Positions 24,674-26,157 of a stretch of 51,502 bases of DNA are shown here, in pieces. Position 1 is the first letter of the stretch, and the number at the start of each line of letters is the position of its first letter. Source of the DNA: Escherichia coli (GTDB taxonomy: Bacteria; Pseudomonadota; Gammaproteobacteria; Enterobacterales; Enterobacteriaceae); the NCBI RefSeq assembly GCF_048403405.1, contig NZ_CP183133.1; one strand, given 5' to 3'. The notes under the pieces are model-generated. The model was not told the origin of the DNA. It saw only the letters and a list, made by a program, of their open reading frames with translations, and did no database searches. The position numbers and the translations under genes were made by a program.

Positions 24674-24711
24674 CGGAGACTGACCTCGTTCCGCTTTCCA
24701 AGCGACCCCCT
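24674..24711. repeat. Tn3-family-like 38-bp inverted repeat, intact copy (tip GGGGG at 24707-24711)
   Basis: Reverse complement GGGGGTCGCTTGGAAAGCGGAACGAGGTCAGTCTCCGC; its first 22 bp match the IR halves flanking both IS5075-like copies. Confidence 0.45.
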
Positions 24712-24810
24712 TGTTGAAAGTGCGACAAAAGAGATAGGGCGAATGACTATACTTCGCTCATAGCTGCCCGTCATGCCAGCTCAAAAAACAGGCTTAACGT
24801 AGGATATTTA

Positions 24811-26136
24811 ATGAGATGGTCACTCCCTCCTTCCCGGTACTATGCTGAGGACAGGCTTTCATTCGGAGAACTATCATGGAAAACATTGCGCTCATTGGTA
24901 TCGATCTGGGTAAAAACTCTTTCCATATTCATTGCCAGGATCGTCGCGGGAAGGCTGTTTACCGTAAAAAATTTACCCGGCCAAAGTTGATCGAATTTTT
25001 GGCGACATGCCCCGCTACAACCATCGCAATGGAAGCCTGTGGCGGTTCTCACTTTATGGCACGCAAGTTGGAAGAGTTGGGGCATTCCCCAAAGCTGATA
25101 TCACCACAATTTGTCCGCCCGTTCGTTAAAAGCAATAAAAACGACTTTGTCGACGCCGAAGCTATTTGTGAAGCTGCATCGCGTCCGTCTATGCGTTTTG
25201 TGCAGCCCAGAACGGAATCTCAGCAGGCAATGCGGGCTCTGCATCGTGTCCGTGAATCCCTGGTTCAGGATAAGGTAAAAACAACCAATCAAATGCATGC
25301 TTTTCTGCTGGAATTTGGCATTAGCGTTCCCCGAGGAGCTGCCGTTATTAGCCGACTGAGTACCATTCTTGAGGATAATAGTTTGCCTCTTTACCTCAGC
25401 CAGTTATTGCTGAAATTACAACAGCATTATCACTATCTTGTTGAGCAGATTAAAGATTTGGAATCCCAGTTGAAACGAAAGTTGGACGAAGATGAGGTTG
25501 GACAGCGCTTGCTGAGCATTCCCTGCGTCGGAACACTGACAGCGAGTACTATTTCAACTGAGATTGGCGACGGGAAGCAGTACGCCAGCAGCCGTGACTT
25601 TGCGGCGGCAACAGGGCTTGTACCTCGGCAGTACAGCACGGGAGGTAGGACGACATTGCTGGGAATTAGTAAGCGAGGTAATAAAAAGATCCGAACTTTG
25701 TTGGTTCAATGTGCCAGGGTATTCATACAAAAACTGGAACACCAGTCTGGCAAATTGGCCGATTGGGTCAGGGATTTACTGTGCCGGAAAAGCAACTTTG
25801 TCGTCACTTGTGCTCTGGCAAACAAGCTGGCCAGAATAGCCTGGGCCCTAACGGCACGACAGCAAACTTATGTAGCATAACGGCAGAAATACACCGGTTT
25901 AAAGAATTACTGATCTGGTTTTGCGAATACTGATATTGATGATACTAACGGCCCACCGGCCTGTTGAGGAACCTGTAAAACGGAAAGGCTCATTGAAGCC
26001 GTATATTTTCTGGAGGTTCATCAGGCGCGGAACTCATCAAGGCGCGGGAATAAAATCCCATTCAGACGCCGGATAGATTCAAGCAAGCCAACTTGTCGTC
26101 AAAATCGGTGTTGCAAAAACGGGAGTGACCATAGAT
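24811..26136 (+). mobile_element. IS1111/IS110-family element (IS5075/IS4321-like, about 1.33 kb) inserted in a Tn3-family 38-bp IR-like sequence
   Basis: Subterminal inverted repeats GGTCACTCCC (24818-24827) / GGGAGTGACC (26121-26130); flanked by IR halves CTTAACGTAGGATATTTA (24793-24810) and TCCGTTTTCCAAGCGGCCCCC (26137-26157). Confidence 0.75.
24876..25880 (+). CDS. IS110-family transposase (334 aa)
   Basis: ORF translation MENIALIGIDLGKNSFHIHCQDRRGKAVYRKKFTRPKLIEFL… (DEDD-type transposase). Confidence 0.85.
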   Translation: MENIALIGIDLGKNSFHIHCQDRRGKAVYRKKFTRPKLIEFLATCPATTIAMEACGGSHFMARKLEELGHSPKLISPQFVRPFVKSNKNDFVDAEAICEAASRPSMRFVQPRTESQQAMRALHRVRESLVQDKVKTTNQMHAFLLEFGISVPRGAAVISRLSTILEDNSLPLYLSQLLLKLQQHYHYLVEQIKDLESQLKRKLDEDEVGQRLLSIPCVGTLTASTISTEIGDGKQYASSRDFAAATGLVPRQYSTGGRTTLLGISKRGNKKIRTLLVQCARVFIQKLEHQSGKLADWVRDLLCRKSNFVVTCALANKLARIAWALTARQQTYVA

Positions 26137-26157
26137 TCCGTTTTCCAAGCGGCCCCC

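Follow-up and report, generated by a model that had tools for sequence, protein, structure and literature searches.

The DNA analysed here (the window) is a stretch of 51,502 nt from Escherichia coli (contig NZ_CP183133.1), which is probably part of a Klebsiella plasmid of the pKPN3-like IncFIB(K)/IncFII(K) kind. A repeat scan of the window reveals a 1404-nt inverted repeat, whose arms (24754–26157 and 45758–47161) are separated by a spacer of 19,600 nt. Each arm contains a copy of the insertion sequence (IS) IS4321, and each copy splits a 38-bp terminal inverted repeat (IR) of the Tn3 family. These two repeats are called IR-A and IR-B here. The 19.6-kb segment between their tips, 26158–45757, is described following the annotation of the 100% identical plasmid pKqq_SB98_2. 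It begins at the IR-A side with the 3' remnant of a gene for an EAL-domain (c-di-GMP phosphodiesterase) protein (26163–26420, plus strand), which is cut off at the IR-A tip. In EAL profiles, the 85 aa of this remnant align to the C-terminal end only, for example to positions 171–249 of 255. The segment further contains an IS66 tnpB fragment, fecEDCBARI (27143–34688, minus strand), an amidase/ABC operon (36243–44075, plus strand), and, at the IR-B side, creatininase gene fragments. An isolated IS903-type end is located at 35146–35176, between fecI and the amidase operon.

Computational excision places IS4321 copy 1 at 24809–26135 (plus strand) and copy 2 at 45780–47106 (minus strand). Both are 1327 bp, which is the published length of IS4321 (PMC5001619), and copy 2 is the exact reverse complement of copy 1 (100% identity). 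The boundary is ambiguous by 1 nt because T24809 equals T26136; a T ambiguity at the IS boundary is likewise discussed in PMC5001619. The 12-bp subterminal inverted repeats of copy 1 are ATGGTCACTCCC at 24816–24827 and GGGAGTGACCAT at 26121–26132, and in each copy 7 nt lie beyond the former and 3 nt beyond the latter. The sole open reading frame (ORF) of the element encodes a transposase of 334 aa, at 24876–25880 (plus strand) in copy 1 and at 46035–47039 (minus strand) in copy 2, and is followed by a non-coding stretch of 255 nt at its 3' side.

The transposase scores 341 bits against NCBIfam NF033542 (IS110 family RNA-guided transposase; cut-off 140), and the identical protein WP_000427623.1 is named IS4321 family transposase in RefSeq. 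As a whole element, the window IS is 99.7% identical to the right-hand IS4321 of R751 (13404–14729; 3 mismatches and 1 gap), 97.1% identical to the left-hand IS4321 of R751, and 93.5% identical to IS5075 of NZ_CP073628.1 (86 mismatches, no gaps). Judged by these identities, the element is IS4321, not IS5075. Features of the IS4321/IS5075 type that are present include the length and the subterminal repeats, a DEDD transposase, near identity to the R751 element, and a fixed insertion position and orientation without target duplication.

Excision of each IS copy restores a 38-bp IR that is cut between positions 22 and 23. IR-A reads GGGGGCCGCTTGGAAAACGGAA/AATATCCTACGTTAAG on the minus strand (26157→26136 joined to 24808→24793; here and below a slash indicates the cut), and IR-B reads GGGGTCCGCTTGGAAAACGGAA/AATATCCTACGTTAAG on the plus strand (45758–45779 joined to 47107–47122), starting with GGGGTCCGC. 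The outer 22 bp, or tip halves, are 26136–26157 for IR-A, with the tip at 26157 adjoining the truncated EAL gene, and 45758–45779 for IR-B, with the tip at 45758. The only difference between the two IRs is at position 5, G in IR-A and T in IR-B. In shuffled sequence about zero matches are expected for both IR half-patterns. The similarity continues inside the IRs: the 39 bp of subterminal sequence at 24754–24792 is the reverse complement of 47123–47161, so that the inner 16 bp of IR-B and its subterminal sequence together occupy 47107–47161 (plus strand). Over the IR and these 39 bp, the two ends are identical at 76 of 77 positions.

Empty sites were sought in the plasmid collection with queries in which the flanks are joined after removal of the IS (441 nt for site A and 362 nt for site B). 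Most of the site A construct is found in 276 plasmid records, many of which are uninterrupted at 100% identity without gaps. The IS-free site B construct is uninterrupted at 100% identity in 56 plasmid records. The rebuilt sites are therefore natural empty sites, which indicates that the boundaries are correct and that no target duplication was generated. In pKqq_SB98_2 there is also a third IS4321 copy, inserted in a third and more diverged IR of the same class, IR-C (GGGCTCCGTTTGG...CGCTAAG; positions 289–310 and 1638–1653 of the retrieved locus). The insertion position, between nucleotides 22 and 23, is the same in IR-A, IR-B, IR-C, and both IRs of R751.

Both IRs of the window are 38 bp, begin with GGGG and finish with TAAG. 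They are identical to the IRs of Tn2502, from the Yersinia plasmid pYVe227, at 37 of 38 positions. The correspondence includes position 5: IR-B pairs with the tnpA end of Tn2502 (GGGGT), and IR-A pairs with its ars end (GGGGG), each at 37/38. The Tn21 IR, in the sequence that we take it to have, matches IR-A and IR-B at only 28–29 of 38 positions. Based on sequence similarity, IR-A and IR-B belong to the Tn2501/Tn2502/Tn2503 group, not to Tn21. This group of transposons is described in PMC3316555.

A first reading of this DNA, made from the sequence without database searches (the sequence-only reading), had already recognized two inverted IS copies, each inside a Tn3-family 38-bp IR, around a 19.6-kb segment, and the identical 1327-bp copies and the rebuilt IRs bear this out. 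It called the elements IS5075-like, which is right as to the IS4321/IS5075 type but not as to the exact identity. It also ascribed the insertions to a preference for Tn21-family IRs; the position and orientation are indeed the canonical ones seen in R751, but the IRs are of the Tn2501/Tn2502 type. The internal sequence shared by the two ends, estimated as about 30 bp, extends over 39 bp. The interval to which that reading was assigned, 24674–26157, covers copy 1, its IR, and a relic inside IR-A (see below), but nothing of copy 2 or IR-B.

When one genome per species is scanned, the IR core is found at 75 loci in dozens of species, mostly Enterobacterales along with Vibrio and Shewanella. The alignment of these loci shows two common kinds of ends. 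In class 1 the IR is directly joined to the 3' end of a Tn3-family tnpA gene, as in an E. coli plasmid with a TnpA that reaches 1035 bits on NF033527. In class 2 the IR is followed by a conserved sequence of 50–55 bp (CCTGTTTTTTAAGCAGGCATGACAGGCAGCTTTGAGCGA.AAGCGGAC) and then by unrelated cargo. IR-A, IR-B, and IR-C are all class 2, the non-transposase type, and the subterminal consensus is common to all three; on the IR-B side it persists, in diverged form, to around 47180. In six complete relatives, a partner end and a 5-bp duplication of the target can be read from the flanks in the alignment: Pantoea sp. IMH (ATTCC), Shewanella (TAGAT), Symbiopectobacterium (TAAAT), Pantoea rodasii (TTGAA), Xenorhabdus bovienii (TATTA), and Ca. 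Pantoea haifensis (AATAT). These complete elements with 5-bp duplications indicate that the transposon family is real and active. A further solo IR of the Tn2501-type family (92% over 86 nt; positions 9001–9086 of the retrieved locus) is present in pKp_SA12_1, an IncHI1B/IncFIB plasmid from a liver-abscess isolate, flanked by an H-NS gene and an aldo/keto reductase/ABC transporter block.

On the inner side of IR-A, an end module is seen at 24527–24808 (minus strand). It is composed of the inner 16 bp of IR-A (24793–24808), the 39-bp subterminal sequence (24754–24792), a half-IR-like relic, and around 150 bp more. An identical copy of this module (~285 bp including the relic) is present in the Leclercia adecarboxylata chromosome, and the module is also identical in Pantoea conspicua, where it runs on into genes for alcohol dehydrogenase (ADH), lacI, and lacZ. 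The outside flanks of the module are different in these two species. Identical modules with different outside flanks indicate that a mobile lac module terminates at IR-A. In pKqq_SB98_2, IR-C and IR-A enclose a copper-receptor/lacYZI/ADH module of about 11.6 kb. In the window, the ADH gene is cut by an IS26 copy (22675–23494), leaving an ADH remnant at 23495–24472, and everything left of this remnant, including the lac module that adjoins IR-A in relatives, was removed by IS26. This IS26 copy is one of two that are 820 bp, inverted, and 100% identical to each other (the other is at 813–1632); together they enclose 21 kb. On the other side, an IS903-like element of the IS5 family (47281–48337, plus strand) interrupts the interior 158 bp inside IR-B.

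The half-IR-like relic, GGGGGTCGCTTGGAAAGCGGAA (24689–24710, minus strand), lies 82 bp inside IR-A in direct orientation. The sequence-only reading regarded it as a third, intact IR 80 bp inside the target of copy 1, which does not hold: the resemblance to the IR is limited to its outer 22 bases (20/22), and the next 16 bases agree at just 2 positions. Among 86 loci, it is confined to the IR-A end module. It was considered whether the relic is the tip half of an IR that formerly contained an IS, and this origin was rejected: when the 60 bases to its left are compared with the right end of the IS, 1001 of 2000 shuffled sequences score as high. A Tn3-derived inverted-repeat miniature element (TIME) would consist of two inverted IRs around a core of a few hundred bp; here the sole nearby IR-like sequence, 24689–24710, is partial and in direct orientation. 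In the Photorhabdus cinerea genome, many copies of the same IR lie at contig ends, and complete IRs also form directly oriented pairs with distances of 221 and 143 bp (88–337 and 12267–12438 of two retrieved loci), in a layout that resembles IR-A and the half-IR.

The tips of both IRs point at the 26158–45757 segment, as the sequence-only reading stated. This topology is explained by comparison with related plasmids, which that reading had proposed and which reveals intact IR-A and IR-B. In the IS-free plasmid NZ_CP027425.1, IS903 is followed by an intact IR-B, the creatininase fragments, the amidase operon, fec, the EAL remnant, an intact IR-A, ADH, and finally lacI. The tips are already inward in such IS-free relatives, and the topology is therefore older than the IS insertions. 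IR-A and IR-B are two separate solo ends of the non-tnpA kind facing each other, and the fec/amidase segment is part of neither element. The sequence-only reading was correct in placing the fec/amidase region outside both ends, but it assumed a single nominal transposon, and there is no such element. Because IS4321 enters the IR in one orientation only, opposed IRs result in inverted IS copies.

At least 444 plasmid records contain at least 80% of the 24.9-kb region in one place. In most of these records IS5075 occupies both IR sites, while IS4321 is found in the window and three others. The presence of either IS5075 or IS4321 at the same sites implies that the two inserted independently or that one was exchanged for the other. 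PMC8269217 already reports a plasmid of this kind with IS5075 inserted beside the EAL gene. CP067557.1 and AP022554.1 contain approximately 10 kb extra in the matched region, including lacZ and lacY.

In the 3' non-coding region of IS4321, a putative seekRNA guide region is located at 25977–26010 (plus strand, copy 1), with a GGCT...AGCC hairpin between two target matches. The sequence AAAACGGAAA (25977–25986) is equal to IR positions 14–23, and ATATTTTC (26003–26010) is the reverse complement of IR positions 20–27. The two matches address opposite strands of the target and overlap at the cut site. According to PMC11187229, the seekRNA of IS1111-type elements originates from the 3' non-coding region and has two short segments, one for each strand of the target, whose pairing regions overlap where the element inserts. 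The order and the cut-site overlap of the IS4321 matches agree with this description. Between IS4321 and IS5075, there is 1 difference in the last 223 nt, versus 77 in the 1005 nt of the transposase gene. A nearly invariant 3' region next to a divergent transposase gene indicates constraint on the non-coding region. No Rfam family matches IS4321 at the gathering threshold.

The target core implied by the two matches, AAAACGGAA/AATAT, is identical in IR-A, IR-B, and IR-C. The Tn21 IR, as we presume it to read, is one base off this core. Two related sequences in the window are unoccupied by IS4321. The half-IR relic lacks the core (AAAGCGGAA/CGAGG), and a Tn1721-type 38-bp IR, GGGGAGCCCGCAGAATTCGGAAAAAATCGTACGCTAAG (3723→3686), is intact with a core that deviates at 3 of 14 positions. 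This intact IR, at which a Tn1721-type tnpA fragment ends (1939–3723 region), represents a natural negative control for targeting. It is most likely that IS4321 is targeted via an RNA from its 3' non-coding region, which would pair with both strands of the core. Owing to the shared 14-bp core, IS4321 and IS5075 target not only Tn21-type ends but also ends of the Tn2501 group.

The inverted IS pair is a substrate for homologous recombination that flips the 19.6-kb segment. At least 46 plasmid records have a contiguous recombinant junction, in which the ADH side, the IS, tip B, and the creatininase side follow one another. NZ_CP073628.1 is fully flipped, with the order IS903, IS5075, EAL, fecE to fecI, amidase operon, creatininase, IS5075, and lacI. 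An IS-free version of the flipped junction is present in no record of the plasmid collection. Inversion explains the two orientations of the 19.6-kb block that are seen in plasmid assemblies.

The history of the locus can be proposed as follows, and we assign this account as a whole (older solo ends of the Tn2501 group, later entered by IS4321) a probability of roughly 85%. Two solo 38-bp ends of the Tn2501/Tn2502 group would have been present long before any IS, each consisting of the IR and the conserved subterminal sequence of ~55 bp of the non-transposase kind. IR-A would close a lac/alcohol dehydrogenase module on its left, which IS26 would have cut away in the lineage of the window, and IR-B would open a module on its right. 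IS4321, an IS1111-type member of IS110 expected to move via a circular intermediate, would then have entered both IRs between positions 22 and 23 without target duplication. An IR split in this way would be disabled as a transposase substrate until the IS is excised, and homologous recombination between the IS copies would yield the flipped segment. The impairment of transposon mobility by IR occupancy until the IS excises is described in PMC12189595.

Other explanations were considered. Two identical IS copies around a 19.6-kb accessory segment look like a composite transposon that delivered the fec/amidase genes, and the literature loosely calls fec flanked by IS110-type transposases. This origin is extremely improbable, as the same segment is in the same place between intact IRs in IS-free plasmids, each IS copy sits in its own canonical target site, and no common flanking duplication is seen; IS1111/IS110-type elements are moreover described, in the literature as far as available, to move as single circles to a specific site. 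The IS-free plasmids equally disagree with a single Tn3-family transposon that received an IS in each IR and whose interior was then inverted by recombination between the IS copies. Such inversion does occur, but it moves only the DNA between the copies, so that tip halves originally outside would remain outside, whereas here they are inside. Both ends are also of the same non-tnpA class, and tnpA is absent according to tblastn. This scenario has hardly any credibility.

Intramolecular replicative transposition of a Tn3-family element inverts the intervening DNA and leaves two inverted copies with like ends facing the segment. The ends could thus be duplicates from one such event involving a Tn2501-type element, whose copies later decayed. 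The same end type, the tips directed toward the segment, and the 76/77 identity are what this textbook mechanism predicts. It is nevertheless unlikely, because the interiors diverge past the 39 bp (13/23 over the next 23 bases, then unrelated), because the IR-A version, but not the IR-B version, is present as such in Pantoea and Leclercia, and because there is no transposase remnant on either side. Far less likely still is that the IRs resemble the IS4321 target by chance and are not transposon ends. IS5075 is known to insert at look-alike sites, the 3' end of ureC among them, and the EAL site is treated as a mere target, placed just after the EAL start codon, in the part of PMC8269217 available. 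Against this stand the conservation of all 38 bases, not only of the ~14-bp core, with 37/38 identity to the Tn2502 IRs, and the conserved subterminal module that follows, as in complete elements with target duplications. The IR-A tip is also the point at which the EAL gene is truncated, and the same end is found at other loci in other genera.

Several points weigh against the history proposed above. In the window, neither IR-A nor IR-B has a partner IR or a matching 5-bp duplication, and a tnpA or resolvase gene belonging to them is missing as well; that they are transposon ends is concluded from homology and from relatives found elsewhere. The IR half-pattern search finds no other IR of the Tn2501 type in the window, and in NZ_CP027425.1 there is no partner of IR-B within 14 kb, the IR query matching two places only on that plasmid. 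A tblastn search with related TnpA finds nothing adjacent to IR-A or IR-B, only the Tn1721-type fragment at 1939–3672. A tnpA remnant beside these IRs was considered and rejected, as only the last five codons (LKKQA and stop) are recognizable. The 5-bp flanks are ATATT for IR-A, TGATA for IR-B, and TATTA for IR-C, with no match among them; IR-A and IR-C bracket the lac module, yet their flanks mismatch. For the half-IR relic, one guess is that an older nested element ended there. A few events that spread clonally could account for the 46 flipped records. As for the guide region, the available part of PMC11187229 demonstrates seekRNA experimentally only in other members of the family and mentions IS4321 only for its target logo.

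The closest known arrangement is that of IS4321 in the IncP-1 plasmid R751 ('Tn4321'). There, too, two inverted copies are inserted between positions 22 and 23 of 38-bp Tn3-family IRs and are oriented alike with respect to the IR, and the length of 1327 bp, the subterminal repeats, and the 3' non-coding region are shared. The IRs of R751 are, however, of the Tn21 type with outward tips and represent the two ends of one small element, whereas those of the window are of the Tn2501/Tn2502 type with inward tips and represent the ends of two different relics. Tn2502, an arsenic transposon, and Tn2503 contain tnpA, tnpR, res, and ars between paired IRs; the window has solo ends only, and the subterminal sequence of IR-A and IR-B is of another class than either end of Tn2502. 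Tn951, a lactose transposon of the Yersinia plasmid pGC1, is comparable by its description, with a Tn2501-type IR bordering a lac operon. Tn951 contains Tn2501, according to titles cited in PMC3316555. Klebsiella plasmids and Pantoea have the IR-A end together with ADH-lacI-lacZ, a layout that parallels Tn951, although in the window the lac genes are gone.

The IS5075 insertion beside EAL in PMC8269217 is, judging from its description, apparently at the same site as IR-A. In the text available of that paper, the site is defined only by its position next to EAL, whereas here it is a complete Tn2501-type IR that truncates EAL. The seekRNA or bridge-RNA elements ISEc11, ISKpn4, and ISPa11 of the IS1111/IS110 type resemble IS4321, as described in PMC11187229, in the non-coding region downstream of tnp and in two opposite-strand matches with the top-strand match first. 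The guide of IS4321 is putative, recognized here from sequence matches and conservation.

Other features of the window include two matches to Rfam, an IS1222 ribosomal frameshift element (4210–4327, minus strand; 131.6 bits) and group II intron domains D1–D4 (12525–12750, minus strand; 186.6 bits), the latter adjoined by an ORF at 10933–12420. Tandem arrays are seen at 8924–9718 (37 bp, 21.5 copies, 93% matches), 17184–17559 (36 bp, 10.4 copies), and 6754–6846 (the 11-bp ACTACAAATAA, iteron-like). Three IS903-like copies, at 5353–6357, 7428–8437, and 47276–48285, are around 90% alike. A 98-nt inverted repeat of 95% identity (3721–3818 and 48337–48434) is apparently a piece of an IS3-family orfB; one copy adjoins the tip of the Tn1721-type IR, and the other directly follows the IS903-like element beside IR-B.

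Neither the element nor its targeting rule nor the locus is new. What is added here is the correct name of the IS, the family of the IRs, the solo-end account of the topology, and the inversion isomers. In these Klebsiella plasmids, a very common family, the fec/amidase block is not a transposon carried by an IS pair, and module boundaries in these plasmids are marked by relic transposon ends. It can be speculated, though this is rather doubtful at present, that solo Tn2501-type non-transposase ends (the 38-bp IR and the module of ~55 bp) are widespread boundary elements that might be mobilized in trans, delimiting and shuffling lac, fec, and amide-utilization modules in Klebsiella plasmids and other Enterobacterales. 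Occupancy by an IS would then be a reversible mobility lock as well as an inversion switch.

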